A stretch of DNA of 64,000 nt from Acidobacteriota bacterium (lineage in GTDB: Bacteria; Acidobacteriota; Thermoanaerobaculia; Multivoradales; JAHEKO01), in NCBI GenBank assembly GCA_029862975.1, contig JAOTWP010000002.1, forward strand, positions 26,287-90,286. The letters are read 5' to 3'. Under the pieces are notes generated by a model, which did no database searches, was not told the origin of the DNA, and saw only the letters and a program-made list of their open reading frames with translations. The position numbers and the translations under genes are program-made. This document shows positions 23,554-52,355 of this stretch, in pieces (the stretch's first letter is position 1; each line of letters begins with the position of its first letter).

Positions 23554-23589
23554 GGCTCGGCGCCCGGGCCGGACGGCCCGCTGACCCGC

Positions 23590-36500: not shown

Positions 36501-39500
36501 CTACCCTCGGGCCCGTCGCCGCGAGATCACCTCGATGAAGCCGGGGAGAATCTCCAGATGATCGCCGAGCATATCGTGAATCGCGCCACGGCTCAGCTCG
36601 AGAAGCCTCGTCGGCGCAACGGCGGTGGCGTCGGCCGTTCGCGCCCCGGTCTGCACCGCGGCGATCTCACCGAGGGTGCCCAGCTCTCCGACCTCGGTCA
36701 GCAATCTGCCGTCCTTCTCGACCCGAACCCGGCCCTCGACGACCAGAACCAGCGTCTGCCCGGGCTCCCCTTCCCGAAACAGCGGCATGCCCTCGCGGAG
36801 ACTCATCTCCCTGGTGCCCGCGCAGTACGTCGCCAGCAGGCGCGAAGGCAGCCTGGCGAAGAGATCCGAGCTCTTGAAGACGAGCACCTTCTCGAACGCC
36901 AGCAGATTCCGGCGGCCGCTCCCGTCACCCTCCGACCCGGGCTCGAGAAGCACAAGAAGGGGCTGCCGCGCGCTCGCCGGCAGCCGCTTCACATGGTGCT
37001 CGAACGCCGCACGATCGATCTCCGCGAGCGCCCAGGCGGCGAGCTCGCGCACCATCGCGTCCGAGCTGTGGAGATTGGCGAGCAGCGGTTCGGGGACGCT
37101 CTTCTCGCCGAGCTCCACCCACGACTGGATGGCGGTGGCGCGGAGCCAGCCATCGGCCGTACGGCGACCCCGGCTCATGATGTCGAGGAGGCGGGCGGAG
37201 CGGCCAAGGAGGCGCTGCGGCGAGTGCGCGGCGAGGCGATGGAGCAACTGGGCGCGCGGCAGGCTCTCGAAGAGGGGTAGCAACAGGTCCCGCTGGCCGG
37301 GGGGTAGGATCTGGTCGGCGATCTCGACGGCGTAGGCTCGATCTTCAGTGTTCTCGGACGCGATCTGTTGGCGCAAGAGCTCGACCGTCTTGCCGTCGGC
37401 GATCAACGCCAAAAGGTGGAAGATGGTCTCGATCTCGCTCTCGATCTCCAGATCGAGAGCGCCGGCGAGAAGCTCGGTCTCGCGACCATCACCGAGATCG
37501 AGGCGCGAGGCGAGATACCAGGCGAGGGTATCGACGACCTTCTCGATTTGATTCTGGACGATCGATTCCTGCTCGCCCCGGGCGCGGAAACCGAGCATGC
37601 CGAGGGAGCGGATCGCCTGCCGCTCGACGCCGCGGTCGGGGAAGACGAGTCTGTCGAAAAGGAGACTTTCCGCCTTGACGCCGCCGATCCGCTCGTAGAT
37701 GCGGAGAATCCGCAACCTCGCCTCCGGAGAATCGTCGAAGCGCCCGAAAGCCGCTTCCAGGGAGTCGAGTACACCCTCTCCGGCGGTGATCAGGCTCGAG
37801 GCTGCCGCCTTGCAGAAGAGCCCGGACGGCAACTGTTCGATCAGGACGGGCCAGAACTCGGCCCGCCGAGTCTGGCCGGCGGCGATCAAGGCGCGGCGGC
37901 GCACGGCGATGTCGCTGTCCCGCATCAGCCCGAAGAGCGAGCGCGCGGCCACGAGATCGGTTCGCCGGCCGATCATGACGGCTGCCGACTCGCGCTGCGC
38001 GGGATCGCGGGATTGAGCCAGCGCCGCCAGCTGGGCGGGCGTCGCGTCGTCCTGCGCCGCCGCCAGGAGAGAGCGGGCCGCGGCGCGGGCGGCGGCCGTC
38101 ATCTGCGGCTCCGACTCGCGAGCAGCCGCTGCCGAGAGCGCCGGCACCGGGTCGAAGATCTGCTGTACCTCGATCGTCTCGTAGGCCATGCGGCGCAGCT
38201 CCGCACGGTCCGACGCCAGCAGCTCGACCAGCAGTAGCTCGAGGACGTTCGGATCGACCACCTTGAGCGCGTCCAACGAGTGCCTGCACTCGAGCGGTGG
38301 CGCGGCCTGCAGCCGCCGGAGGATGAGGTCGAGCGGCGAGGCGATGGAGGCTCCTCCCGGCTGCCTGGCCAAGGCCGAGAGCAGCTTCTGCTGGAAGCCC
38401 GCGTAGGTCGGACGAATCAGCGTGAGCCAGATGGCAAGAACCAGCGCCAGCGCTACGATGACCGGTAGCGAGGTCTCCGAGACACGGCCCAGGCCGAGCA
38501 GGATCGAGCCGGCCAGCAACAGGCCGACCGGTTTCGCCACGCCCTCCAACCGCGCCTGAACGGACAGCCGGACGTCCTCGGAGAGCGGCTGGAAGAGAAC
38601 CCTCTGCGACGGCTCGAAGATCGAGCGGCGCAGCACGAACTCCGCCATCTTCGCCACCAGCACGAGGATGAAGTAGAGCTCGCCGAGCGCGCCGATCACG
38701 CCGCTCAAGAGCGACAGCGCGACGAGGACGGCGAGCGCCACGGGAAGGGCCGAGAGTCCGACCACGACGCCGAATCGAGTGACGAGCCTGCCCGCCAGGA
38801 ACGTCTTCGTCAGAAGCTCGAACAGCTTGATGACGCCGAAGAAAAAGCCGAGGATCCCGGCCAGGGCCTCTGCGCCCTGGAACCGGGCGCGGGTCTCCAC
38901 GAGGAAGCTGAAGTCGACGAAGAAGAGCGTGAAGACCGACAGCGCCGTGGTCGCCGCCACGAGCACGAAATAGCGATCGGCGAAGACCGTCGACAGGGCC
39001 ATCCCGGGCTCGGTCGCCGCGGCGTCCCGGCGCGTCCTGCGGAGCTGGTCCGCGAAGCGGCGGAGGATCGCCTGCAGCACCAGCAAGGAGAGGATCAGCC
39101 CGCCGGCGGCCAGGGCGAGCAGGCCGGTCGAGCCGAGAGTGCCGACGAGAGCGGGGACGAGCAGGAAGCCGAGAATCTCCGAGACCACCTCGCCGGAGCC
39201 GAGGAGGCCGAACAGGCGCTTGCCCTGCTGCAGATCGAAGAGCCTCGCCGCCAACCCCCAGAAGCCGAGGTCGACGAGCGTCAGGACCGGCAGAATCATG
39301 GAGAACATGACGAACCGGATCCAACCGCCTCCGGGCAGATTCAGCCCGACCGCAAAGAGCGCGGAGAGCACGACGAGGAACGCCAGGTTGATCATCAGCA
39401 GTCGCTCGATCGACACGCGACGCTCGAGGCGCGAGAAGAGCGCGAGGATCAGATAGGCCAGGCCGCCGGAGAGGATGTAGGCCCAGGGCAGAACGCGGTA

Positions 39501-39677
39501 GTCGAACCGATCGAGAAACTGGGCGCTGGCGACGGAGAAGAAGAAGGCGATGAAGACGCCGATCCAGAACGAGTGCGCCCACAACAGGACGATGCGGGAC
39601 CCTTCGCCGGGTCGAATGTGCAGCCAGCGCTCGATCCGCCGCCCGCCACCGGCATCTTCGGCGGCGTCGAGGGGCAT
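36501..39677 (-). CDS. Multidomain membrane protein: an N-terminal 12-TM MFS/TLC (ATP:ADP antiporter-like) transporter domain, HEAT/PBS-lyase-like repeats, and a C-terminal cyclic-nucleotide-binding domain.
   Basis: Start is ATG 39677 (MPLDAAED...) with GGAGGAG 5 nt upstream. About 12 hydrophobic helices lie in the first ~450 aa. Repeated ...A..AL..L.D..V... HEAT-like units follow. The C-terminal cNMP-binding signature is GEPGQTLVLVVEGRVRV...LGTLGEIA. Confidence 0.65.
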   Translation of the reverse strand: MPLDAAEDAGGGRRIERWLHIRPGEGSRIVLLWAHSFWIGVFIAFFFSVASAQFLDRFDYRVLPWAYILSGGLAYLILALFSRLERRVSIERLLMINLAFLVVLSALFAVGLNLPGGGWIRFVMFSMILPVLTLVDLGFWGLAARLFDLQQGKRLFGLLGSGEVVSEILGFLLVPALVGTLGSTGLLALAAGGLILSLLVLQAILRRFADQLRRTRRDAAATEPGMALSTVFADRYFVLVAATTALSVFTLFFVDFSFLVETRARFQGAEALAGILGFFFGVIKLFELLTKTFLAGRLVTRFGVVVGLSALPVALAVLVALSLLSGVIGALGELYFILVLVAKMAEFVLRRSIFEPSQRVLFQPLSEDVRLSVQARLEGVAKPVGLLLAGSILLGLGRVSETSLPVIVALALVLAIWLTLIRPTYAGFQQKLLSALARQPGGASIASPLDLILRRLQAAPPLECRHSLDALKVVDPNVLELLLVELLASDRAELRRMAYETIEVQQIFDPVPALSAAAARESEPQMTAAARAAARSLLAAAQDDATPAQLAALAQSRDPAQRESAAVMIGRRTDLVAARSLFGLMRDSDIAVRRRALIAAGQTRRAEFWPVLIEQLPSGLFCKAAASSLITAGEGVLDSLEAAFGRFDDSPEARLRILRIYERIGGVKAESLLFDRLVFPDRGVERQAIRSLGMLGFRARGEQESIVQNQIEKVVDTLAWYLASRLDLGDGRETELLAGALDLEIESEIETIFHLLALIADGKTVELLRQQIASENTEDRAYAVEIADQILPPGQRDLLLPLFESLPRAQLLHRLAAHSPQRLLGRSARLLDIMSRGRRTADGWLRATAIQSWVELGEKSVPEPLLANLHSSDAMVRELAAWALAEIDRAAFEHHVKRLPASARQPLLVLLEPGSEGDGSGRRNLLAFEKVLVFKSSDLFARLPSRLLATYCAGTREMSLREGMPLFREGEPGQTLVLVVEGRVRVEKDGRLLTEVGELGTLGEIAAVQTGARTADATAVAPTRLLELSRGAIHDMLGDHLEILPGFIEVISRRRARG

Positions 39678-40396
39678 CAAGACTCCTCCGGTGGCGGCGG
39701 CACGGCGACGAACCAGGCATCCTCGGCATGCCGCTCCGGGGCAAGGAAGGCGACGACCTGGAACGGCGTGCTCTCGTAGAGCTGGCACAGCCGCTGCGGC
39801 TCATGGGCGGGAATCAGCGCGTAGTCGACGCCGGCCTCTCCGCCTTCGACGAAGCCACGGAGCCGCTCGCGATCGATCCGCTCGTCGACGAGGGGATCCC
39901 CGTCGAGCGGACGGGCGATCGCCAGCCGCGCGGCGCCGAACCCCGCGAGACGGGGGTACACCGCTTCGACGCTGTGCCCGCAGAGATTGATGAACGTGAC
40001 GAGCGAAGCATGATTGTGGGGCGCCAGGACGGCGCGCTGGGCGCCACAGCCGCGCAGCGACGCCGCAAGCGCCGAGTGGGTGACGAGATCGGCGCCGAGA
40101 CGCCGCCCCGCGAGCTCCTCCGCCACGGCCAGGCTGACGCAGTAGGAGGTGCTCTCTGCGTCGCCGTAGGTGCACTCGAGCAGCGAAGCGACGATCCGTC
40201 CGGCCCCGTCCTCGAGCAGAAGCGGATGGCCGAACCGCACGAACCGATAGAGATCGTAGGCGGTCACCATCTCCAGGGCGGGGGACGAGAAGCGAGTGGC
40301 CAGGAAGGCCTCGATCGCCGGGACGTCGTCGATCCCCGGCGCGCGCAGCCGCAGCCCGAGCCGCGCGAAACGCCGCTCGAGCTGCTCGATGCGCAC
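39677..40396 (-). CDS. GNAT-like acetyltransferase-fold protein (start uncertain).
   Basis: C-terminal ~200 aa show a GNAT-like pattern (GRRLGADLVTHSALAASLRGCGAQRAVL). The proposed GTG start at 40396 (VRIEQLERRF) is weak. The stop overlaps the downstream ATG by 1 nt (TGATG). Confidence 0.35.
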   Translation of the reverse strand: MRIEQLERRFARLGLRLRAPGIDDVPAIEAFLATRFSSPALEMVTAYDLYRFVRFGHPLLLEDGAGRIVASLLECTYGDAESTSYCVSLAVAEELAGRRLGADLVTHSALAASLRGCGAQRAVLAPHNHASLVTFINLCGHSVEAVYPRLAGFGAARLAIARPLDGDPLVDERIDRERLRGFVEGGEAGVDYALIPAHEPQRLCQLYESTPFQVVAFLAPERHAEDAWFVAVPPPPEES

Positions 40397-40488
40397 TCGC
40401 TGCCCGGGCCCCCGGGCACCCCCCGGCTCGGCCCGCTCCTCACAGAGGGCTCTCGGCTTGTGCCGGACGGCGGCAGGCCGCGAGGCGA

Positions 40489-43191
40489 TCACCGATCGCC
40501 GCCGCTTCCGGTGGGAGAGGAGATCCCGACGCGAAGCGACAGGACTCTTCCGGGCTGCGGCAGGATCGACGCGAAGAACGTTCCGTCCGCCAGCCTCACG
40601 CCGGGGTCCGAGTAGGTCTCGGCCAGCAGATTCGTGGCCGACAGCCGAAGCGACCACCGAGACGCGGGTCGACGGTAAGCGAGCGCCCCGTCGAGGACGA
40701 AGTGGGAGTCGATGCGGGCGAGCGGATTGAGCGGGACCGTCGTCAGGCGTCCGGTGGGGCGCTCGCCGACGAAGTTGGCCCGCAGGTTGAAGTTCCAACC
40801 ATCGTCGCGGTGGTAGTTCGCCCCGGCGTTCGCGCGGTGACTGGCGATGTCGCCGATCCTTCGTTCCTCGAGGGTCTGCGTCGTCGCGCTCAAGACCTCG
40901 CCCTTGGGGTCGGTAAAGGTGTAGTTGGCGTAGAGGTCCCAAGCGCCGCGCTGCCAGGAGGCGGTCGCCTGGAGACCGCTGATCTCGCGGCCGCCGCGAT
41001 TGACGTTGCGCCCGGTTCCCGAATCGCCGAACGGCTCGATGGCAACGGCGGCGCTGTAGTCGGCGCGATAGTAGGCGAGGTCGAGGTCGAGGTCCTCCCG
41101 CGGCTGCCAGCCGACGCTGAGCTCGAGGTTCTTCACCTTTTCGGGCGCCAGGTCAGGGGCCTGAAGCTCGCGGGTGCTCGGCGCCGTGGCGTAGCGATTG
41201 AAGTTCGACGCGTCCTTGAAGGCCTCGCTGTAGATCGCCTTGACGACATAGCGGTCTCGCAGGTGAATGAGACCGAGCCGCGGGTTGAGGACGGTGCCGT
41301 AGCCCGAGACCGTGACCGGCTCGCCATCGGCGCCAAGGACGTCGCGGCCGGCCTGAGAGACGTGATTGTCGTCCAACCTGCCACCAGCGACGAGCTTCCA
41401 GCGATCGGACAGCCGGTAGCTGGCCTGGGCGAACACGCCGATATCGGTCTGGTCGAACGACTGGCCGCTGGAGCAGTTCTCGGCTCCCCCGCTCGTGACG
41501 CAAAAGAAGGGCTGCTCGCGGGCGTTGGCAAAGCCAACGCCTGCGGGACGCTCGAACCTCAGGTTGTAGTCGCCTTGAATCTGGCTCGTCCGCACCTCGA
41601 GACCGCCGACCAGGCTGAGCCTGCTCGACGGTCGCCAGTTCAGGGTGATCTCGTTCCTGAACTGCTGGGAAGACTGGCTGTACTCGGTCGTCTGGAAGTA
41701 CGCGGGTATCCCGTTGGCGAGATCCTCGGCGTCGAGGCTGCCCTTGCTGTAGTTGCGCAGCTGCAGCTCGCCCGTGCCGTCGGCCAGCTTGTGCCGCTTG
41801 AAGCGGCTGAACACCGTGAGACCGAGCCGCCCCGGAATCAGGTCGTCCGCGTACTTGGCGTAGAAGAAGAGCTGGCTGGGGATCCACAGGGTGCCGCTGT
41901 CGGCGCCGGTGAACAGCTGGTCGGTAAACCAGCTCGTAAAGCCCTCCTCGCGCCGCCACGTCTGGAAGCCGGCCGTGAACTTGCGGGAGACGGAGATCCG
42001 GCCGTGGATCAGCCAGTCATCGGTGCGATCCGAGAACCGCAGGGGAGCGCCGAGGCTCGACAGCGCAGCCTTGTCGAGGTCGCGGGCGAGCGCGGCACCC
42101 TCACCCAGATGATCGTAGCCGCCGCGATCGAAGTAGAGGTCGTAGAAGCCGGGATCGTAGTCCCAGTAGCGAACGGACGACGGCGTCGCCGGGTCTCCGG
42201 GCAGAAAGCGCGGCCCCGAGAAGCCGGAGAGGTCGAGCTCGTCCGAGGTGTAGGTACGCGCGGCGAGAGAGAACGCGACCTTGCCCAGCACGCGACCGGC
42301 GACGAGAGCGTCGACGAAGCTCGTGCCCAGCTCGGCACCGCCGACCTCGACGTCGTAGAAGAACGATTCGCCCTCCGGCGTCAGATTCTCGGGGTCCTTG
42401 GTGATCACGTTGATGACGCCGACGAAGGCGTTGGGACCGTACATCGTCGTGGCGGGCCCGTAGATCACCTCCACGCGCTCGATGTTGCGCAACGGATACT
42501 GGCGAGAGACGTAGGCGATGTTCGACCACAGATCGTTCTCCTCGACGCCGTCGACGAGAAACAGGGTCCGGTCGGTGCTGTCGGAGCGATAGCCGCGAGG
42601 ATAGACGTTGGAGTAGAGAATTCCGTTGCCGCGCGAGATGTCGAACCCGGGCAGGTCATGAAGCACCGCTGCGAGATCGAGATACCCGCGGCGGGCGATC
42701 TGCTCGCCGGTGATCACCTCGACGGTGGCCGGCGCTTCGCGGAGACTCTCACTGGTCTTGGAGACTGAGCTCACGACCACCGTCGCGCCGCTCGACTTGA
42801 GCTGGGCCACGAGGCGCTTGAGGCGTGGGGGGTCGGCGCGGGCGGGCTCGTAGGCCGGGAGCTCATCGAGCACACGCGCGATCCAGGTCTCCGCCATCTC
42901 GAACTCGTCGCGTCCGAGATGGGCCTTGGCGAGCAGGATCTCGGCTTCGGTTCGATCCCGCCCACGCAAGCGCTCGTAGCATTCGCCAACGGTCTCCAGA
43001 ACGAGGTCGAACCGGCCGAGTCGGTAGGAATCCTCGGCGCCGTCGAGGTCGCAAGCGACGCCCTCGCCGGAGGCCTGGGCTCGCAGCCCGCCCGCACCCA
43101 GGAGGAAGGCGACCACCGCGATCGGCAGCAGGCCTCGCCGGCGCCGCGCCAGGCCTTTCGTGGCTCGACTCCTAAGGACAGGTTGCCTCAT
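40489..43191 (-). CDS. TonB-dependent outer-membrane receptor.
   Basis: Signal peptide. N-terminal extension and plug domain (TVVVSSVSKTSESLREAPATVEVITGEQI, TonB-box-like), IYGPATTMYGPNAFVGVINVITK, and a 22-strand barrel-length C-terminus. Confidence 0.8.
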   Translation of the reverse strand: MRQPVLRSRATKGLARRRRGLLPIAVVAFLLGAGGLRAQASGEGVACDLDGAEDSYRLGRFDLVLETVGECYERLRGRDRTEAEILLAKAHLGRDEFEMAETWIARVLDELPAYEPARADPPRLKRLVAQLKSSGATVVVSSVSKTSESLREAPATVEVITGEQIARRGYLDLAAVLHDLPGFDISRGNGILYSNVYPRGYRSDSTDRTLFLVDGVEENDLWSNIAYVSRQYPLRNIERVEVIYGPATTMYGPNAFVGVINVITKDPENLTPEGESFFYDVEVGGAELGTSFVDALVAGRVLGKVAFSLAARTYTSDELDLSGFSGPRFLPGDPATPSSVRYWDYDPGFYDLYFDRGGYDHLGEGAALARDLDKAALSSLGAPLRFSDRTDDWLIHGRISVSRKFTAGFQTWRREEGFTSWFTDQLFTGADSGTLWIPSQLFFYAKYADDLIPGRLGLTVFSRFKRHKLADGTGELQLRNYSKGSLDAEDLANGIPAYFQTTEYSQSSQQFRNEITLNWRPSSRLSLVGGLEVRTSQIQGDYNLRFERPAGVGFANAREQPFFCVTSGGAENCSSGQSFDQTDIGVFAQASYRLSDRWKLVAGGRLDDNHVSQAGRDVLGADGEPVTVSGYGTVLNPRLGLIHLRDRYVVKAIYSEAFKDASNFNRYATAPSTRELQAPDLAPEKVKNLELSVGWQPREDLDLDLAYYRADYSAAVAIEPFGDSGTGRNVNRGGREISGLQATASWQRGAWDLYANYTFTDPKGEVLSATTQTLEERRIGDIASHRANAGANYHRDDGWNFNLRANFVGERPTGRLTTVPLNPLARIDSHFVLDGALAYRRPASRWSLRLSATNLLAETYSDPGVRLADGTFFASILPQPGRVLSLRVGISSPTGSGGDR

Positions 43192-46100
43192 AGGGGAGAT
43201 CCTCGGGGAAGAAGCGCGCCCATTGCGCGCTGGTTAGACTTCGCGACAGGCGCGAGCAGATCGCGGCGACGAGCTCCTCGCTGCCGGTGGCCCAGCTGCG
43301 GACCGCGCCGTCGGCGCCGCCGGAGAAGAGCCGCCGGACGTCCGGGTGGAAGGCGACCGCCCAGACCCAGGAGTCGTGGCCGGAAAGAACGAGCGGATCG
43401 CTCTCGTAGAGGGGACCCGACCAGATCCTCACGGTACCGTCGGAGCCCGCCGAAGCGAGGAGCTCGCCATCTCTGGCGAAGCGCAACGAGTTGACGCTCG
43501 AGCGGTGGCCGACGAGGCGGCGCGGCGCGGCGTTCGAGCCGAGCTGCCAGAGGAAGACGTCGCCGCGCAAGTTGCCGACGGCGACGACGTCTCCGGCGGG
43601 GTGAAAGGCGAGCGACCGGACGTCGGTCAGACCCGGGTCGCCGCCGCCGCGCCCGCCGACGACCGTGGCGAGCGAGAGCTCGTAGCGGCGGCGAAACGCC
43701 CCGTCTGCGGCTTGCCACACGCGGACGAGGCCCTCTCCTCCGGCGGCCGCCAGCAGGCTCGCGTCGGGAGCGAAGTCGACCGCCGTGACCCTTCCCGAGA
43801 TCTCGAGATCGCTGCCCGACGCGGGATCGGCCGCTTCGCTCCACACCCGTACCCGGCCGCTGGAAAGTCCTGCGGCAAGCGTGCCGGAAGACGAGAAGGC
43901 GAGCGCGGAGACGATCGCTCCCGGTTCGAAGAAGACTTCCGTCTCCGCGGGAGAGGCGCCGAGCGCGAGGATCCGGACACGCCCCTCGACGTCGCCCACT
44001 GCGAGGCGCCCACCCTCGGCATCGAGGGCGAGGGAGCGCACGCCGGCGCCCGGCGCCAGGGAGAGCGGCTTCATGGCGGGAGCACTCGGGTCGAGAACGT
44101 GGATCTGCCCGCTGTCGTCTCCCGAGACGAGGATCGAGCCATCGGCAGCCACCGCCAACGCCCGGACCTGATCGTCATGCCCGGGGAGCCGCCCGCGGGT
44201 CGGATCGAGCTTCGACACAGCGCCCAGGAGGGCATCGTAGATCTCCGCGTTGCGGGGCTCTCCCTCGCTCGACCGATTGAGGCGGTAGGCCTCGACCGCG
44301 ATCAGCGCGGCGAGCTCTGGACCCTCCTCGGCTGCGAGACGGGGCACGCTCACCGCCAGGCGGCGGGCGAGCTCGAGCCGCCGGAGTCGCTGGGTCTTGG
44401 CCTCGGCAGCGCGCGCCTGTCGGGCCGCCTGCTCCGCTTCACCCTGGCTCTTGAGGGCGAGCTGCTCGTTGCGAGCCGCTTCCCGCCTGGCCCTCGCTTC
44501 CAGCGCCTGCGCCTCGAGCGCTCGCGCCCTCTCCTCCTCGGCCCGGCTCTGGGCACGCAGCGCCGTCTGCTCGCTGGCGACGGCCTTCTCCCGCGCAAGC
44601 CTCTCGGCCGCCTGGGCCGAGAGTGCCCGTGCCCTGTCCTCTTCGGCCCGCCGCTTGCTGCGCAAGGCCTCCTCCTCGCTCGCGAGCGCTTCCTCCTTGG
44701 CCCTGGCCTCGCGCGCTACCGCCACTTCGGCACGACCGAGCGCTTCGTCGGCCTGGCCCTTGGCGACCAGCGCCCAGCCGAAGAGAACAAGGATGACGCC
44801 GACCGCCAACGCCGAACCCAGCGCGACCATCCGCAACCCTCGCAGCTTGCGCCTGCGGCGCTGATCCTCGCGGGCCATTTCGCGCTCGCGCTCCGCGCGG
44901 CTGAGCTCGAGGAACGTCGCGGCGCGCTCGTACGAGGGGTCGTAGCGCTGCGCCCAGGCCTCGGTGGGCTGGGCCGACTCGCGCCAGCTGAGCGCCAGCT
45001 GCAGCTCGGGATCGCGCAGCAGCCCGCCCTGGCCATCCTGGTAGCGCGCCGCCGCCGCCGCCAGACGCAGGTAGACCTGGGCGCCCTGGGCCTCCTGATC
45101 CACGAGCCTGCGCAGCCGGGTCCAGACTCGCATCAGGCTCTCGTGCGAGATGTCGACGACGGAATCCGACCGCAGCTCCTTGCCGACCGGAGGGATGAGG
45201 AACGAGCGCCCCGGGCTGCGAAAGACCTCGACCACCCTGCGCACCTCCGATTCCGACAGGCCGGTCACGGCGCAGATCTCCGCCACGCTCGACGGACGGC
45301 GGATCCCGCGGCCGTCGATACCCTTCTCGGTGATGCACTTGAAGAGCTTCTCGGCGCCGTCGATCGCCCCCTCGGTGCCGAGCTCCACGAGTGCTTCTTC
45401 GGCGTGCAGGGACAGCGCTTCGCGGGTCGTACCGATGGCCTCGTAGTGACGCAGATCGAGGGGCTCGTCATCGATGTGGTTGCGCTCCCAATAGTCCCAG
45501 GTCCGCATCAGGGAGTGCTGGAGGATCGGCAGCTCATCGGGGTCGTCGCCGCCGTCGTTGAGCAGCCGGAGAACCAGCCGCTCGGCGATCTCGGCGCCAC
45601 CCACCGCCACCGGGCCGGTGATCGCCGAGCGCCGCTCTTCGCGCGTCATCCGCGGGATCAAGTAGAGGCCGCGGTTGATCGCGCCTGGCAGATCCTGGAA
45701 CTCCGTGCAGTTGCCCAGGAAGTCGGAGCGCATCGTGAGCACCACGAAGATCGGACGTTGCTGCTGCCTCGAAGCCTCGAGAAGCAGGGTCATGAAGGCG
45801 GTCGATTCGTCTGTGGAGGCGAGCCGCGCGGCGCTGCGCTTGAAGCGGAAGATCTCCTCGAACTGATCGACGAGGATCAACAGGTTCTCGTCCTCGGGGA
45901 GCCCGGATTGCCGGACGGCCTCCGTCAGACCCTGGCCGCCACGGCGCAGCGTCGCCTCGATGATGGCGCTGCGCGTGGCGTGGGGCGTGCCGTCGGCTGG
46001 CAGCACTTCCGGATCGCCGAGGCTGGCGGCGAGGTTGCCGAGCGGATCGTCGCCCGGACGCAGGATCGCGATCCGCCAGGAGGATCCGGCCGCGGCGAGG

Positions 46101-46318
46101 TAGCCGCTGTAGAGATAGGGGATCAGACCGGAGCGCACGAGAGACGACTTGCCGCTGCCGGACGCTCCGACGACGGTGAGGAATCGAGACCTGTCGAGAC
46201 GTGCCAGCAGCTCGTCCACCTCCGACTCGCGGCCGAAGAAGAGGTGGTCCTCCCCCGGCTCGAACGGTCTCAGGCCTGGAAACGGATTGAACGTCGTCGT
46301 GGCGTTCGAAACTGCCAT
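43172..46318 (-). CDS. STAND-class P-loop NTPase with a single TM helix, a long coiled-coil and a C-terminal WD40 beta-propeller.
   Basis: N-terminus FFGRESEVDELLARLDRSRFLTVVGASGSGKSSLVRSGLIPYL (Walker A). Walker B LLILVDQFEE. TM helix LRMVALGSALAVGVILVLFGWALVA. ~200 aa of Ala/Glu/Arg-rich heptad-like sequence follow. Then come at least six WD-like repeats (GHDDQVRALAV..., GHRSSVNSLRF..., SGHDSWVWAVAF...). Confidence 0.75.
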   Translation of the reverse strand: MAVSNATTTFNPFPGLRPFEPGEDHLFFGRESEVDELLARLDRSRFLTVVGASGSGKSSLVRSGLIPYLYSGYLAAAGSSWRIAILRPGDDPLGNLAASLGDPEVLPADGTPHATRSAIIEATLRRGGQGLTEAVRQSGLPEDENLLILVDQFEEIFRFKRSAARLASTDESTAFMTLLLEASRQQQRPIFVVLTMRSDFLGNCTEFQDLPGAINRGLYLIPRMTREERRSAITGPVAVGGAEIAERLVLRLLNDGGDDPDELPILQHSLMRTWDYWERNHIDDEPLDLRHYEAIGTTREALSLHAEEALVELGTEGAIDGAEKLFKCITEKGIDGRGIRRPSSVAEICAVTGLSESEVRRVVEVFRSPGRSFLIPPVGKELRSDSVVDISHESLMRVWTRLRRLVDQEAQGAQVYLRLAAAAARYQDGQGGLLRDPELQLALSWRESAQPTEAWAQRYDPSYERAATFLELSRAEREREMAREDQRRRRKLRGLRMVALGSALAVGVILVLFGWALVAKGQADEALGRAEVAVAREARAKEEALASEEEALRSKRRAEEDRARALSAQAAERLAREKAVASEQTALRAQSRAEEERARALEAQALEARARREAARNEQLALKSQGEAEQAARQARAAEAKTQRLRRLELARRLAVSVPRLAAEEGPELAALIAVEAYRLNRSSEGEPRNAEIYDALLGAVSKLDPTRGRLPGHDDQVRALAVAADGSILVSGDDSGQIHVLDPSAPAMKPLSLAPGAGVRSLALDAEGGRLAVGDVEGRVRILALGASPAETEVFFEPGAIVSALAFSSSGTLAAGLSSGRVRVWSEAADPASGSDLEISGRVTAVDFAPDASLLAAAGGEGLVRVWQAADGAFRRRYELSLATVVGGRGGGDPGLTDVRSLAFHPAGDVVAVGNLRGDVFLWQLGSNAAPRRLVGHRSSVNSLRFARDGELLASAGSDGTVRIWSGPLYESDPLVLSGHDSWVWAVAFHPDVRRLFSGGADGAVRSWATGSEELVAAICSRLSRSLTSAQWARFFPEDLPYEATCP

Positions 46319-46327
46319 GATCGTCTC

Positions 46328-47821
46328 CTATGCCTCCACCGCCGCCAGGAAAGGCTCGAGCGACTCGACCGAGAGGCTGTCCGGACACTTGATGACGACC
46401 GCTTCGTGGGTCCGGAACTGCTCCTTCTCCGGCGATGCCGGCTGGGCCACCAGGATCGCCTTCGCGCGCATCGGCTCGGTGCGGCCATAGCCGGCGATCT
46501 TCTTGAGCTCGCGGAGCTTGGAGCGCAGCCAGAGCGACTTCGCATGGCCGTAGTAGATGAGGACTGCGTCGCAGATCTTGAGATTCTCCTCGTGGTCCGT
46601 CCGGACCTCGGAGGCCTCCCCCTCGAAGATCGGCAGCGCGACCTCGAGGCCGCGGTCGTAGAGTAGATCCCCCACCGTTCGCACCTCGTCGATGTCCTTG
46701 CGGTCGCAGATCAGGTAGACCAGGCTCGGGCCGTCCCCGCCGGCCGCGGCGGCCCTCGACCCGCCGTTGGCGGTCACCTTCGGCGCCAGCTTGCCGAGGA
46801 TGGCCGCCTTGAGCTCCTCGAGCGAGGTCTCGAAGAGATCCGCGCCGCCGAGAGTGGCCGGGTCGGTGCGCAGGGCTTGAAGCAGGCTGCGCTGTCGCTC
46901 GTCCTCCGCCTCGACGCCAGGCTGGATCCAGACGACGCGATCGAAGCCGGCGCCGGCGGCCCGCTCGATGGAGAGCCGGTTCTGAAGGTCGGCGAGCGAG
47001 TGGTTGGCGCCTTCGGGAACCACGCCGTAGCTCTTCCCCATGAGGTGAACCGACAGCTGGCACCGGGCGAGGATCTCGGGCACCCGGCGGGCGATCTCCG
47101 AAGCCACGGGTGGCAGGGCCTCCTGCGGCTCGACCGTGTAGCCGCGTTGGACGAGGTCGCGCTTGACGGCGTCTCGCGCTTCCCTGAGCCCGAAGGTCGC
47201 CTCCGCGAGGAAGACCCGTTTGCCGGAACCCTCGGCCGGGGACTTCATGGCCGGAGCCGGAGCACCCTCCGCGGCGGCGGCCTCCGATTCCAGGAGCCGA
47301 GCGATGTCCGAGGCCAGATCGTCGAGGGCCGACCAGTACTTGCGCTCTCGCTCCGGTCCCGAGAAGAGGTTGTACTCACGGACCCGCTCGGTCTCGGGAT
47401 CGAGGGAGAAGAAGTCGTAGCCCAACAGGCCGCGGATCTCCTCCGGCTGGCTCTCGAGAGGAATCGGGGTCTTCGTCACCTTGAAGAGACGGCTCTTGTT
47501 CGCGATCGTCAGATCGCCCCCTCGCCGCTTCGCGTCGAGGAAGCCGGTGAGCTCTCGCAGACACCACTCCGACCGCACGTAACGCGGCGACAGCACGGAG
47601 ACCATCGTCGAGACGCTCGCGAAGCGGTCGGCGATCTCGCCTGCGAAATCGTCGTTGCCCTGCAGCTTGGGATCGCGCCACACTCGCGGCTCGCGGCCCA
47701 GCAACTGCCCGAGGCGGACCTTCAGCGAGTGGTGGAAGCTCGAGACCCACCCCTCCTGGTCGGGAACCAGCGGTTGATTGTCGATGTGCGCGTAGCTGAC
47801 GAAGACGTCGTTCTCTGCCAT
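46328..47821 (-). CDS. TIR-domain protein with two further TIR-like/flavodoxin-fold (DUF4062-like) domains.
   Basis: N-terminus MAENDVFVSYAHIDNQ...WVSSFHHSLKVRL...VLSPRYVRSEWCLREL is a canonical bacterial TIR. Two further Rossmann-like modules follow (KRVFLAEATFG...CQLSVHLMG; SLVYLICDRKD...CDAVLIYYG). The stop lies 9 nt upstream of the NTPase ATG, with AGGAG overlapping the stop. Confidence 0.75.
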   Translation of the reverse strand: MAENDVFVSYAHIDNQPLVPDQEGWVSSFHHSLKVRLGQLLGREPRVWRDPKLQGNDDFAGEIADRFASVSTMVSVLSPRYVRSEWCLRELTGFLDAKRRGGDLTIANKSRLFKVTKTPIPLESQPEEIRGLLGYDFFSLDPETERVREYNLFSGPERERKYWSALDDLASDIARLLESEAAAAEGAPAPAMKSPAEGSGKRVFLAEATFGLREARDAVKRDLVQRGYTVEPQEALPPVASEIARRVPEILARCQLSVHLMGKSYGVVPEGANHSLADLQNRLSIERAAGAGFDRVVWIQPGVEAEDERQRSLLQALRTDPATLGGADLFETSLEELKAAILGKLAPKVTANGGSRAAAAGGDGPSLVYLICDRKDIDEVRTVGDLLYDRGLEVALPIFEGEASEVRTDHEENLKICDAVLIYYGHAKSLWLRSKLRELKKIAGYGRTEPMRAKAILVAQPASPEKEQFRTHEAVVIKCPDSLSVESLEPFLAAVEA

Positions 47822-48025
47822 TCTCAGCTCATCGCCCGCCCGCGCGGTCCACCGCCGCGCCGCTCCCGACGACGCCCTCGAGGGGTTGACTCGAATGGGG
47901 ATGGCACCCTCGATCCCATGCGAGTTGAAAACAAGGTACTACAGATCTTCCCACATCGGCGCGCCGCATCGCACCGGGTGCTCGGTCGTCCGCCGGCTCC
48001 CGGAGGTGCTCGAGAGGGTCCGGCG

Positions 48026-51000
48026 TCAGGTCGCCGCGCGGGCGATCGACGGCGCCCCGCTCGCCTCCCGGCGCCGGGCGTGGTAGCGATGGACCTGGTG
48101 CGCGAACGCCTCGAGACGAGCCTCGCCCGAGCCGCCGGTGCCGTCGCCGTAGACGAGGGTCGTCATCGGGACGTCGTCGTGGTCCGCTCGCAGGCGGTCG
48201 AGCAGCGAGGCCGAGATCGTCCCCACCATGCAGTTGAGGCAGATCGCGTTGACCACTCCGGACGCGCCGTGGCGCGCGAAGTCGATCATCTTCGACAGGT
48301 TGAGCAGCGCCAGGTAGTTCGCCTCCGGCGGGGCATAGGGAGCGGTCGCCGCGAGGACCTGCGCATAGGTCGGCTCGGGACGGGCGGCCATGACGAGGGC
48401 GCCGCGAACCCGCGCCGCCGCGTGATGGCGCAGGGCCTCGAGCAGCGTGGCCGTCAGGAGCTCGCGAATCCGCCACTGCCGCCGCGCCTGCCGCGCCCAG
48501 CGTGACGCGGTGAAGTCGACCGTGTCGACCAGCGTGGGGGCGGGCCAGACCTCGCAGCCGAGCGACTCCAGCCGGCGGAAGAGATCGTCGCTGGCGAAGC
48601 CGTTGACCCGCGTGTAGACGTCGCCCGCCACGCCGACCGCGGGCCGCGGAGGCGAGCGGTCGATGGCGATCGCGGCGAGGTCCTCGCCGGCGCGGCGCAC
48701 CGCCTGCTCGAGACCGCCGCTCTCCACCGCTTCCTCGACGCGCCGCAGGTTGGCCCGGTGGACGGCGTCCGTCCGCCCGGGCTCGAGCTCGTACGGTCGC
48801 AGCGAGCAGGCTGCCTTGAGCAGGAGATCGACCGCCACCAGGCCCTGCCAGAAGAGGTAGAGCCCGTGGAAGCCGAGCAGCGACGAGAAGTGCTCGGTGG
48901 TGTGGGGAGTGACGACGTCAATCCGCGGCGGGGCCAGCCCGCGCAGCCCGTGCAGCATGGCATCGCGGTACTGGGGCAGGAGGCAGGGGACGGCGGTGCC
49001 GGGGAAGAGGAAGGCGTCTCCCTCCCGCGACCCGCCGGCGCTCGCCAGGCTGGAGAGGTCGCCGGCAAGAATGCTGAACACGTGGCACTCCCGGCCGGAG
49101 GCCATCCGGGCGCCGAGCCGGCGCTTCGCTTCGTCCGGCGGCGGCAGGACGACGGCCTCGTGACCGGCCCGGCGCAGAGCGCCGGCGTAGGCGTGGACGT
49201 GATCGGCGAAGTGGGGCAGGAAGTAGCGACGGCTGGCCGGCGTCCGGCGGGTCTCCCCGCGGGCGGGGCCGCGGCGCACCGCGGACCCGGTCCGCCGCCG
49301 GCAGAAGGCGTCGATCTCGTCCGCGAAGGCTTCCAACCGGGTGATCAGCCCGGCTTCGGCGCGGTGCTCGTCGACCTCCAGGACGAGCTGGGGCCGGTTC
49401 TCGAGCAGCGCCTCGAGATGGCGCACGGTGAACCCGTCCGGCCCGCAGCCGAAGCTCGAAATGGCCAGGGGGAACAGGCGGGGATCGTCGCGCGCGAAAA
49501 GCGCCGCCCGTACGTAGTCCCGATTGGTGCCCCAGGGAAGCTCGGACCACCGCTCGTCGAGACTCACCTCGTCGAGCGGCAGGCACTCCATGGGCATGAA
49601 GGGCAGTCCGAGGCGGACCAGGTGGCGCCCCAGGCCCAGGTTGAGGAACGGGTCGAGGAGGTTGTAGGGCTTGCCGAGAACGACCACCAGCCGATCGCCG
49701 CGGCGCGCGAGCAGCTGCCGTCCGAGGGCCCGCATGCGCCCGCGGAACCGCTCCTGGGCGCGCAGGCCAGCGGCCAGGGCCGCCTGCAGGAGGTCGGGCT
49801 CGATGCCCAGCCGGGCGGCGAGCCCTTCGGGCTCGAGGATCCGTTCTTCGGCGAGCTCGACGCGGGGGGCGAGAAGCTCCACCCCGAGGGCGGCCCGGAC
49901 CATGAACGGCAGGTAGTGGGTGTAGGGGCAGGTGTGGCCGGCGGGGGACGAATCCGCCGGGCCGGGCGGCACCGACAGCACGGAGGGAAGGAGGATCGTC
50001 CGGACCCCGCGGGCGAGCAGATCGCGCACGTGGCCGTGGGCCATCTTGACCGGCAGGCAGGTCTCCGCCCGGATGTCGCCGAGCGCCGCCGCCAGGATGG
50101 ACGGCGAGCTCGGAGCCGAGAGCACCGCTTGCCTGCCCGCCGCCCGCACCAGCGCCGCCCACACCGGCAGCCAGGCGAGGGCGAGCCCGGCCCGCGGGAT
50201 GCCCACGGCGCTCGTGGGGTCGACGGCGCCGTCGGCTCCGGCAGCCAGACCGGCCTCCTCGAGCAGCGCCGCCTCCATCACCGCCAGATGGTCCTCGGCG
50301 GCGGCGCCGCCGGCGGGCGCCGCCGCCTTGCTGGTGTAGCGCTCGCAGGTGTCGCCGAAAAAGAAGCTCTCGGCGCCCGAGCGCAAGCGGTTCACCTGAC
50401 AGCGGTTGGAGCACAGCGGGCACTCGAAGCTGCGGTCGATCTCGCCGCTGCACGCGGTGAAGCCCTTGAACCGGGTGCTCTCGGCTGGCCGCCGCGTCGC
50501 CCGTCGGTCGAGAACCAGCAGCGCGGCGCCGACGGCCCCCGAGAGGCGGTTCCAGGGATGGACCTGGACCGGCCGCCCGAGGCTTTGCTCGAGCGCCGCG
50601 ACGACCGCCCGGTTCGACGCCGTCCCGCCCTGGAAGAACACCCGCCGGCCGATCGGTCGCCCCGCCACGACCCGGTCGAGGTAGTTGCGCACCACCGACA
50701 AGGCGAGGCCGGCGACGATGTCGTCGCTCGCGGCCCCGTGGCGCAGCGCGCGAGCGACCTCGCTGTCCATGAACACGGTGCAGCGGCTGCCGAGATCGAC
50801 CGGCGACGGCGCGCGCAAGGCGCGCTCGGCGAACTCCTCCTCGATCCGGATCCCCAACCTCTCGGCCTGCTCCTCGAGAAACGACCCGGTGCCGGCGGCG
50901 CAGATCTTGTTCATCGTGAAGTCCACGATGTGACCATCTCTCACCTGGATGTACTTCGAGTCCTGGCCGCCGATCTCGAGCACCGTGTCGACGTCGGGAA

Positions 51001-52246
51001 GCACGGCCACCGCCGCCCGCAGCTGGGCCGTGATCTCGTTGCGGACCTCGTCGGCGCCGATCAGCCAGCCCGCCAGGTGCCGCCCGGAGCCGGTGGCACC
51101 GGCGCCGAGCACCAGGATCCGGCCGCGATGGCGGCCATGGAGGATCGCGAGCCCCTCCCGCACGGCCTCGAGCGGCCGCCCGCGAGTGCGCAGATAGACG
51201 CCGTCGACCAGCCGGCCGTCCACGGTCACCAGGGCGAGGTTGGTGGAGACCGAGCCGACGTCGACCCCGAGGACGACCGCGGTCTCGCCCAGTCCCTCCC
51301 CCCCGGGCTCCGCCTCGGGAGCGGCTCCGAGCGGGGGCTCGAGGGCGGGCAGGCGCGGCAGCGGGGGCGGAGCCGCCCGGTGCCCGCGCAGCAGGCGTCG
51401 CAGCTCGTCGAGACCCACCGGCGCGCCGCCCGCCGCCAGCAGCGCCGCGCCGACCGCGGCGGCCACCGTGGGCGGATCGGGGATGACGAGGGCCCGCCGC
51501 TCGAGGGCGAAGACCTGCCGCACGGCGCGGACCACGCCCTGGTTGAGCGCCCCGCCGCCGATCAAGGCCAGCGGCAGCCGCAGCCGCTTGCCCCGCAGCA
51601 GCGTCGCCTGGAGGTTGCGGACCAAGGCCAGGCAGAGGCCGAAGGCGATCTCCGCCACCGGAGTGCCCTTCTGCTGCAGGTGGATCATGTCGGTCTTGGC
51701 GAAGACCGCGCAGCGGCCGGCCACCGCGGCCCCCCGGGGAGCCCCGGCGGCGAGAGAGGCGAGCCCGGCGATCTCTAGCCCCAGGCGGCCCGCCTGCTGC
51801 TCGAGGAAGACGCCGGCGCCGGCGGCGCAGGGCTGCGACAGCGAGAAGTCGACGAGCTCGCCGCTGCCCCCGTCGGCGAGCGCCATCCAGCGCGAGAGCT
51901 GGCCGCCGATCTCGATCACCGAGCGGGCGCCGGGACACACCGCCGCGGCGCCGCGGGCGCCGGCGACGACCTCCCCCGCGGCGACGGCGCCGCGGCAGCC
52001 TTCCCCGAGGAGATCCCGCGCCCCGCCGGTGAGTCCAACCCGCACCCGGTGGTCGCGACGGGACTCGCCGGCACCGAGATCGCCACCGAGATCGGCGACC
52101 AGCTCGTCGACGAGGGCGCCGAGCACCGGCAGGGCGGCGCCCTCGTAGGCGCGCGAGCGCCCCCACAGCACCTCGCCTCCGGGCTCGACCACCGCCAGAT
52201 GAACGGCGACCGAGCCCAAGTCGATGCCGAGTCGCAGGCTAGCCAT
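48026..52246 (-). CDS. 1406-aa fusion of two BadF/BadG/BcrA/BcrD (HgdC-like) ASKHA ATPase 'CoA-substrate-specific enzyme activase' domains with a 2-hydroxyacyl-CoA dehydratase-like / DUF2229 region.
   Basis: Start is ATG 52246 (MASLRLGIDLGSVAVHLAV) with GGAGAG upstream. A second ASKHA module is present (VLGVDVGSVSTNLALV...EIGGQDSKYIQV...NKICAAGTGSFLEEQAERLGI). A Cys cluster CPLCSNRC...GDTCERY follows. The long C-terminal region resembles HgdAB-like domains. Confidence 0.7.
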   Translation of the reverse strand: MASLRLGIDLGSVAVHLAVVEPGGEVLWGRSRAYEGAALPVLGALVDELVADLGGDLGAGESRRDHRVRVGLTGGARDLLGEGCRGAVAAGEVVAGARGAAAVCPGARSVIEIGGQLSRWMALADGGSGELVDFSLSQPCAAGAGVFLEQQAGRLGLEIAGLASLAAGAPRGAAVAGRCAVFAKTDMIHLQQKGTPVAEIAFGLCLALVRNLQATLLRGKRLRLPLALIGGGALNQGVVRAVRQVFALERRALVIPDPPTVAAAVGAALLAAGGAPVGLDELRRLLRGHRAAPPPLPRLPALEPPLGAAPEAEPGGEGLGETAVVLGVDVGSVSTNLALVTVDGRLVDGVYLRTRGRPLEAVREGLAILHGRHRGRILVLGAGATGSGRHLAGWLIGADEVRNEITAQLRAAVAVLPDVDTVLEIGGQDSKYIQVRDGHIVDFTMNKICAAGTGSFLEEQAERLGIRIEEEFAERALRAPSPVDLGSRCTVFMDSEVARALRHGAASDDIVAGLALSVVRNYLDRVVAGRPIGRRVFFQGGTASNRAVVAALEQSLGRPVQVHPWNRLSGAVGAALLVLDRRATRRPAESTRFKGFTACSGEIDRSFECPLCSNRCQVNRLRSGAESFFFGDTCERYTSKAAAPAGGAAAEDHLAVMEAALLEEAGLAAGADGAVDPTSAVGIPRAGLALAWLPVWAALVRAAGRQAVLSAPSSPSILAAALGDIRAETCLPVKMAHGHVRDLLARGVRTILLPSVLSVPPGPADSSPAGHTCPYTHYLPFMVRAALGVELLAPRVELAEERILEPEGLAARLGIEPDLLQAALAAGLRAQERFRGRMRALGRQLLARRGDRLVVVLGKPYNLLDPFLNLGLGRHLVRLGLPFMPMECLPLDEVSLDERWSELPWGTNRDYVRAALFARDDPRLFPLAISSFGCGPDGFTVRHLEALLENRPQLVLEVDEHRAEAGLITRLEAFADEIDAFCRRRTGSAVRRGPARGETRRTPASRRYFLPHFADHVHAYAGALRRAGHEAVVLPPPDEAKRRLGARMASGRECHVFSILAGDLSSLASAGGSREGDAFLFPGTAVPCLLPQYRDAMLHGLRGLAPPRIDVVTPHTTEHFSSLLGFHGLYLFWQGLVAVDLLLKAACSLRPYELEPGRTDAVHRANLRRVEEAVESGGLEQAVRRAGEDLAAIAIDRSPPRPAVGVAGDVYTRVNGFASDDLFRRLESLGCEVWPAPTLVDTVDFTASRWARQARRQWRIRELLTATLLEALRHHAAARVRGALVMAARPEPTYAQVLAATAPYAPPEANYLALLNLSKMIDFARHGASGVVNAICLNCMVGTISASLLDRLRADHDDVPMTTLVYGDGTGGSGEARLEAFAHQVHRYHARRREASGAPSIARAAT

Positions 52247-52355
52247 CAGGAGCTCTCCACGGGCTGCTGGCTGCTGCCCCATGATCGGGCACCGCTCGCC
52301 GCCGCGCACCACCCCCCGGGGCGGCCGACCCGCCACCCCGGCGATCGCGGCGGGT

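Follow-up and report, generated by a model that had tools for sequence, protein, structure and literature searches.

The window analysed here is a stretch of 64,000 nucleotides from the genome of an Acidobacteriota bacterium (assembly GCA_029862975.1, contig JAOTWP010000002.1, positions 26,287 to 90,286 of the forward strand); coordinates below are counted from its first letter. On its minus strand lie two adjoining genes, one for a TIR protein of the FxsC family and one for a membrane-anchored STAND NTPase, followed by the gene for a TonB-dependent receptor. The original prediction, made from the sequence alone, had singled out the pair as a candidate NLR-like module for defence or death signalling, with a TIR domain on one protein and a STAND NTPase, one transmembrane helix, a coiled coil and a WD40 propeller on the other. 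All of these features proved to be real and correctly placed, and their division over two genes was borne out by Pfam matches to TIR_2 (residues 6-101 of the first protein, E 7.7e-11), nSTAND1 (PF20703, residues 12-429 of the second, E 2.3e-90) and WD40 repeats (around residues 800-1020, E 9.7e-41). The features of the pair are as follows, with the basis of each assignment in brackets.

46328-47821, minus strand: FxsC-family TIR protein, 497 aa (Pfam TIR_2, NCBIfam FxsC_Nterm, homologue alignment, AlphaFold and Foldseek)
47552-47554, minus strand: codon of the predicted catalytic residue Glu90, within the putative TIR NADase domain (residues 6-101)
Same gene, minus strand: linker (residues 102-200) and FxsC-C, a TIR-like alpha/beta domain (residues ~200-497)
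46319-46335, minus strand: coupling region, with a Shine-Dalgarno AGGAG overlapping the TIR stop codon, a 9-nt gap and the nSTAND1 ATG
43172-46318, minus strand: nSTAND1-type STAND NTPase gene, 1048 aa (Pfam)
45031-46285, minus strand: nSTAND1 NTPase domain, residues ~12-429 (PF20703 and invariant columns of the alignment)
44750-44845, minus strand: single transmembrane helix, residues ~492-523 (Kyte-Doolittle scan)
44278-44746, minus strand: charged coiled-coil segment, residues ~525-680 (sequence)
43172-44071, minus strand: C-terminal WD40 beta-propeller, residues ~750-1048, putative sensor (Pfam)

The 497-residue protein is assigned by its sequence to the FxsC family, with a predicted active TIR-FC domain and a C-terminal FxsC-C domain, although its match to NCBIfam FxsC_Nterm (residues 7-175) scored 55 bits, under the cut-off of 130. 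The catalytic motif of plant TIRs, WC-RE, is kept, and the catalytic glutamate, whose presence had been proposed as a check, was found as E90 in 120 of 120 aligned homologues; the C-terminal region is conserved across the same alignment. An AlphaFold model built with a 44-sequence alignment (A1; mean pLDDT 84) starts with a TIR fold and continues with alpha/beta domains of the Rossmann-like kind. In Foldseek searches this model matched TIRs of plant NADases, namely that of grapevine RUN1, including the NAD-bound RUN1 E100A mutant, and those of Arabidopsis RPP1 and SNC1, as well as the SPARTA TIR and tandem Rossmann folds. The modelled C-terminal half is made of the Rossmann-like domains and drew the TIR and tandem-Rossmann matches, a fold that fits FxsC-C, which is read as an inactive TIR in a recent preprint that describes TIR-FC as an active NADase (bioRxiv 10.64898/2026.10.19.760177). 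Two extra TIR-like or DUF4062-like modules had been proposed for this protein. The TIR-like fold of the C-terminal part holds; the DUF4062 identity does not, as the match to that family (residues 102-175, E 0.003-0.006) was weak and below the cut-off, and FxsC-C is found instead.

The source genome (G000) carries a single copy of FxsC. The names of FxsC homologues, too, point to Acidobacteriota/Thermoanaerobaculia as the probable host group. Six more TIR_2 proteins are encoded on its other contigs (one each on C202, C5 and C131, and three on C284) and could belong to other TIR-based systems; a second, weak nSTAND1 was found on contig C149. Among the FxsC homologues, four are fused N-terminally to a Ser/Thr protein kinase (P0121, P0122, P0056 and P0115), and P0115, at locus L026, is still followed by an nSTAND1-TPR gene. 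In P0123 an FxsC-type TIR makes up the C-terminal end of an nSTAND2-like STAND/AAA NTPase with TPR repeats; sensor and effector are naturally fused in this protein.

The STAND protein is specifically an nSTAND1, judging from its Pfam match and alignment. It begins with the motif NPFPGLRxF, invariant among orthologues (alignment A2), and has no N-terminal effector domain. Walker A (GASGSGKS, with its conserved Lys at ~K57) lies at residues ~50-58 and a Walker B-like motif (LVDQFEE) at residues ~148-155. The hydrophobic segment at residues ~492-523 reaches a Kyte-Doolittle maximum of 2.4, and a transmembrane segment was seen at the same position, always with an Arg/Lys-rich N-terminal flank, in every module nSTAND1 scanned (the source genome and five orthologues). 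This positive-inside flank suggests that the N-terminus is cytoplasmic and the C-terminus outside, and a type-II topology is thus the most likely one. The segment that follows (residues ~525-680) is highly charged and heptad-like, and was judged by eye to be a coiled coil; its region is poorly conserved, with 26-36% identity, compared with 56-64% for the NTPase domain. Many beta-propeller families besides WD40 matched the C-terminal repeats, which vary among loci: WD40 in most, TPR in L020 and L026. Hydrophobic segments also occur in nSTAND1 paralogues unlinked to FxsC, at other positions. Since nSTAND1 sensors diversified by diversity-generating retroelements (DGRs) have been described (PNAS 2024, PMC10907252), which need a reverse transcriptase together with template and variable repeats, DGR targeting of the WD40 sensor was considered as well; it was rejected, as no reverse transcriptase (RVT_1) was found in the source genome, which is 93% complete.

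The two genes show tight translational coupling. The TIR stop and the nSTAND1 ATG are 9 nt apart and the AGGAG overlaps the TIR stop codon, TAG, as had been stated; the 20-nt overlap at the 3' end of the pair, where the ATG of the TonB receptor lies inside the nSTAND1 gene, was confirmed as well. The claims made for the region upstream of the pair fared less well. A TTGACT box had been pointed out, but a promoter motif is not supported: the box is on the plus strand, opposite to the operon genes, and no match to the sigma-70 consensus above chance was found in 46000-48600, nor any terminator consensus above chance in 47822-48025. This intergenic region had also been called lower in guanine-plus-cytosine (GC) content. 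At 0.69 it is slightly lower than the window (0.714), but it does not differ from the module genes (0.67-0.71), and GC is reduced modestly across the whole block from 36 to 48 kb, possibly a hint of horizontal acquisition. A mobile-island context was rejected, with no integrase or transposase among the genes flanking the module, no tRNA in the window and only this modest dip in GC.

When the informative loci with an FxsC homologue were compared, an nSTAND1 gene was found immediately downstream on the same strand in all 17, and in many of them the stop codon of one gene abuts or overlaps the start codon of the next. The 17 are independent loci, from eight metagenome or ENA contigs (L019/L034 and L020-L026) and nine GTDB genomes, and the GTDB part includes FxsC homologues of only 27-29% identity. 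Pairs that were never adjacent in other genomes would have spoken against the original prediction; instead, adjacency was invariable. The other objection foreseen there, that the genes might be housekeeping ones conserved throughout the clade, is answered by their distribution: FxsC homologues were present in four of 61 close relatives and in eight of 401 genomes of the phylum (2%), a patchiness typical, as judged from these sequence surveys, of defence systems rather than of housekeeping genes.

The sensors of these loci also form a group of their own. In a maximum-likelihood tree that compared them with unlinked nSTAND1 paralogues from related genomes of the order, the NTPase domains of the FxsC-linked nSTAND1s fell into one clade (UFBoot 100, SH-aLRT 100). 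The linked proteins begin at the NTPase, with the P-loop at residues 43-65, whereas the unlinked paralogues are extended N-terminally by 190-540 aa. One of these extensions is TIR-like; it contains MSTIFISHNSADRAW and belongs to an unlinked paralogue in G014 (locus L016), in which the parts that are split here are fused. Given that the linked proteins have no extension and the paralogues have one, the lineage seems to have passed its effector to a separate gene, and the pattern is consistent with supply of the effector to the linked nSTAND1s in trans.

Complex prediction pointed to a physical basis for such an arrangement. Residues 1-470 of nSTAND1 (alignment A2) were modelled with full-length FxsC (A1) in three runs and with controls. 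The ipSAE was 0.74 (0.73-0.75 between runs) against 0.00 for the best control; at least 94% of contacts agreed between runs, and partner pLDDT was at least 80. In this confident model the interface brings together residues 318-446 of FxsC, which lie in FxsC-C and not in the catalytic TIR, and residues 22-81 and 226-257 of nSTAND1, the former being the N-terminal helices of the nucleotide-binding domain; FxsC residues ~400-446 are the ones predicted to touch residues 22-81. This is the site at which other STAND proteins carry their fused effectors. The model supports, short of demonstrating it, a role of FxsC-C as an adaptor that would dock FxsC on the sensor and leave the TIR-FC domains free to cluster.

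Downstream of the pair, two further genes come into consideration, together with one element of special interest within the first of them.

40489-43191, minus strand: TonB-dependent receptor, 900 aa, same operon (Pfam Plug/TonB_dep_Rec)
~42786-43059, minus strand: N-terminal extension of the receptor, residues ~45-135 (predicted fold)
36501-39788, minus strand: accessory polytopic membrane protein with HEAT repeats and a C-terminal domain binding cyclic nucleoside monophosphates (cNMP) (domain searches, L034 orthologue)

The receptor has a signal peptide, an N-terminal extension of ~90 aa with conserved Cys residues, a TonB-box-like ATVEVIT, a plug and a 22-strand barrel (alignment A3; Pfam Plug and barrel matches). 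That the extension might be an STN signalling domain, as in TonB-dependent transducers, was considered and rejected: the STN Pfam domain gave no match in the receptor at E<=10, AlphaFold models the extension as five helices in a TPR-like fold (residues 50-130 at pLDDT 95-98), and Foldseek returned weak matches to TPR, BamD and Fis1 only. Any analogy with the transducers is therefore one of topology at most, not of homology. An orthologous receptor subfamily, with plug identities of 68-75%, follows nSTAND1 in G000, L034, L022, L023 and L025, and a different outer-membrane beta-barrel takes its place in L024; relatives without the module have only generic TonB receptors, at no more than 48% identity. 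Of the 120 best homologues of the extension, ten are encoded on contigs that also carry FxsC homologues. We infer that the receptor is probably part of the module rather than a mere neighbour.

An apparent fusion of the C-terminal half of nSTAND1 with the N-terminal half of the receptor (P0199) was dismissed as a probable frameshift or assembly artefact, since its locus, L035 (ENA contig_10900), is fragmented: it holds a DUF4062 remnant, nSTAND1 in pieces and a readthrough from nSTAND1 into TonB. Even on this reading, the locus confirms the linkage of the two genes. L035 also adjoins genes for YcaO, ThcOx and a nitrile-hydratase-alpha-like precursor, a cluster for ribosomally synthesised and post-translationally modified peptides that echoes the link of FxsC systems to FxsAB peptide processing. 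At L023 and L025, radical SAM genes are located a few kb upstream of the FxsC-nSTAND1-TonB genes and could represent an FxsB-like peptide maturase link.

The product of the fourth gene has ~10-12 transmembrane helices with a weak MFS match, HEAT repeats and the cNMP-binding domain, and is 41% identical over 1044 aa to the product of the gene after TonB in L034. The gene follows the receptor in G000 and L034 and probably in L023, and is absent from most loci; it is thus an accessory fourth gene in some of them. In its combination of a cNMP-binding domain and many transmembrane helices the protein resembles the membrane effectors of Pycsar. However, no cyclic pyrimidine nucleotide cyclase (PycC), which Pycsar has in the same locus, was among the Pfam matches of the neighbouring genes. 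Some 700 bp (39789-40488) separate the receptor from this gene, compared with 22 nt between the L034 orthologues. A 421-aa open reading frame (39677-40942, minus strand) overlaps the 3' end of the receptor gene and may, in its C-terminal part, represent a genuine gene.

The reading that we prefer, with a slight lean in its favour, is that of a split NLR-like module, in which the membrane-tethered nSTAND1 would activate the TIR NADase of FxsC in trans and bring about abortive infection or cell death. The WD40 propeller (or TPR repeats) and the coiled coil would detect a product of a phage or other invader, or an envelope signal. The trigger would free the NTPase to bind nucleotide and to oligomerise, as STAND and NLR proteins do, and FxsC would be recruited by docking of FxsC-C on the N-terminal face of the nucleotide-binding domain. 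Sensor oligomers would then cluster the TIR-FC domains into an active NADase, with E90 as its presumed catalytic residue. NAD+ depletion is expected because the catalytic glutamate is invariant and the family is one of TIR NADases; alternatively, products of the ADP-ribose type might be made, with abortive infection or cell death as the presumed outcome in either case. A role in defence or death is likely by analogy with the family. The transmembrane helix, as a signal anchor, would fix the sensor in the inner membrane, its coiled coil and WD40 propeller facing the periplasm, and the co-transcribed receptor, with its module-specific and presumably periplasmic TPR-like extension, is a candidate signal source or partner at the outer membrane. 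Taken further, this would make the transmembrane NLR and the TonB receptor an envelope-spanning sensor that relays an outer-membrane event, such as phage adsorption to the receptor or damage of it, to the TIR NADase and so to cell suicide; this extension we think unlikely.

Several points weigh against the split module as we read it. That the module cleaves NAD+, defends against phage and kills the cell is predicted from sequence. The complex score is a measure of model confidence only and could reflect a general likeness among STAND and TIR proteins. The topology is read from hydropathy and the positive-inside rule only, and it would be uncommon for a WD40 propeller to lie in the periplasm. 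The module loci L021, L020, L026 and G058 have no TonB receptor, and the extension of the receptor is, by its predicted fold, TPR-like and helical and not the STN signalling domain of the transducers. A PADLOC scan, which had been suggested as a check, matched no named defence system. Finally, the host phylum, Acidobacteriota, is not a classic multicellular taxon.

Some of these points would be accommodated if the same TIR and nSTAND1 pair worked with a sensor that, as is usual, lies in the cytoplasm, the hydrophobic segment being a membrane anchor or a buried helix and not a signal anchor, the WD40 domain recognising phage proteins in the cytoplasm as the TPR or WD40 sensors of Avs and bNACHT do, and the TonB receptor being a common neighbour. 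We regard this as a tentative possibility, on the doubtful side. Cytoplasmic C-terminal repeat sensors are the norm in STAND defence proteins, and the loci with no TonB receptor and the lack of an STN fold in the extension would both be expected; the hydrophobic segments of the unlinked paralogues, located elsewhere in those proteins, raise the prospect that membrane association is a trait of the whole family. However, the transmembrane segment of the module nSTAND1s is strictly conserved in position, together with its Arg/Lys-rich flank, and a type-II precedent exists in the receptor-like subtype of TIR-ParA systems (bioRxiv 10.64898/2026.10.19.760177).

Two further explanations keep the pair but change its output or its purpose. 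FxsC activated by nSTAND1 might generate a signal, as in Thoeris, with a messenger of the cyclic ADP-ribose (cADPR) type acting on a separate effector, either the HEAT/cNMP protein or a SLOG- or SIR2-type protein elsewhere in the genome. Some TIRs, such as ThsB, do make signalling cADPR isomers, and the fourth gene, orthologous between G000 and L034, has the Pycsar-effector-like make-up described above; but most loci lack that gene, no gene of the SLOG or SIR2 type was found in the module, and sensing of a TIR product by a cNMP-binding domain would be unprecedented; we consider this distinctly improbable. Least probable, in our judgement, is a regulatory or regulated-death module that is not immune at all and ties the function of an outer-membrane receptor (nutrient or siderophore uptake, envelope damage) to NAD+ depletion, so that growth would be arrested under envelope stress. 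The frequent co-transcription of the receptor and the possibly periplasmic sensor domain would suit such a function, but the distribution is patchy and mobile-like, as for defence systems, and TIR-FC and nSTAND1 are both families known from conflict systems (PMC8195603; bioRxiv 10.64898/2026.10.19.760177).

The split of TIR and STAND NTPase had not been recognised in the original prediction as a named system, and this needs to be amended in part. FxsC and nSTAND1 pairs belong to the apoptosis-like TIR-ParA systems of the 2026 preprint, in which the partner of FxsC is FxsT, a ParA protein that in many cases is grafted onto a STAND NTPase of the AP-ATPase, nSTAND1 or NACHT type (bioRxiv 10.64898/2026.10.19.760177). 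The present locus shares with those systems the TIR-FC and FxsC-C domains, both of which are found here, and a STAND-type nSTAND1 partner with C-terminal repeats; the single-pass, type-II topology of the receptor-like subtype described there matches that proposed for nSTAND1 here. It differs in that the ParA (SIMIBI) partner FxsT and TIR-FT are not present, with no ParA domain in the Pfam scan and an NTPase that starts at residue 12 of nSTAND1, and this nSTAND1 has neither an N-terminal ParA graft nor an effector domain. A TonB receptor is often part of the module here, and the preprint makes no mention of TonB. By its domain content, then, the core pair represents a variant of the TIR-FC/nSTAND1 (TIR-ParA) family that lacks ParA.

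A link of the nSTAND1 family to conflict systems and to apoptosis-like ones has been described (Kaur, Burroughs, Iyer, Aravind eLife 2021, PMC8195603). The present sensor has in common with the nSTAND1 conflict systems the NTPase clade, the superstructure-forming WD40 or TPR repeats, which were found here, and a TIR effector (PMC8195603; eLife 2020, PMC7159879). In those systems the effector is usually fused N-terminally; here no such fusion is seen, and the effector is encoded by a separate gene alongside a membrane-tethered sub-clade. As in plant TNLs and their resistosomes (RPP1, ROQ1), a TIR NADase would be switched on by an oligomerised STAND NTPase, of the NB-ARC type in plants, and the Foldseek matches to the RPP1 and RUN1 TIRs are in keeping with this likeness; but the TNLs have the TIR fused N-terminally to an NLR with an LRR sensor, whereas the TIR here is separate and the sensor has a WD40 propeller and a transmembrane anchor. 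In Thoeris (ThsA and ThsB), too, NAD+ is processed by a bacterial TIR protein as part of immunity. However, a SIR2/SLOG partner like ThsA was not found in the neighbourhood within the window, PADLOC gave no Thoeris match, and activation is predicted to come directly from a STAND sensor and not from a receptor-free TIR that makes a signal. The Avs and other bacterial NLR-like STAND proteins are reportedly soluble, with fused effectors (SIR2, nucleases) and TPR sensors. With these our module would share a STAND sensor with C-terminal repeats and activation of an effector by oligomerisation, but its TIR acts, on our reading, in trans, its sensor has a transmembrane helix and no fused effector, and the Avs models of PADLOC were unmatched.

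In bacteria, plants and animals alike, STAND and NLR immune receptors are believed to detect their triggers within the cytoplasm. A membrane-anchored STAND subfamily that travels with a TonB receptor and possibly has a periplasmic WD40 propeller would, if true, provide an NLR-type switch triggered from the cell envelope, and an immune receptor of the NLR/STAND kind that senses from outside the cytoplasm. Neither such a membrane-anchored sensor clade nor its recurrent linkage to a TonB receptor with a module-specific extension was found in the literature searched. The module would also extend the TIR-ParA/FxsC family to a ParA-less form, and, having just two components, it is a convenient case in which to study how a STAND sensor might activate a TIR NADase in trans, with a predicted interface that is open to mutation.

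Other genes were noted in the window. The flanks of the module include a BcrAD/DUF2229 CoA-substrate activase (48026-52336) and an X-Pro dipeptidyl peptidase (58357-60348), and a tandem pair of large sulfatase genes (PF00884) lies on the plus strand at 20875-25806.

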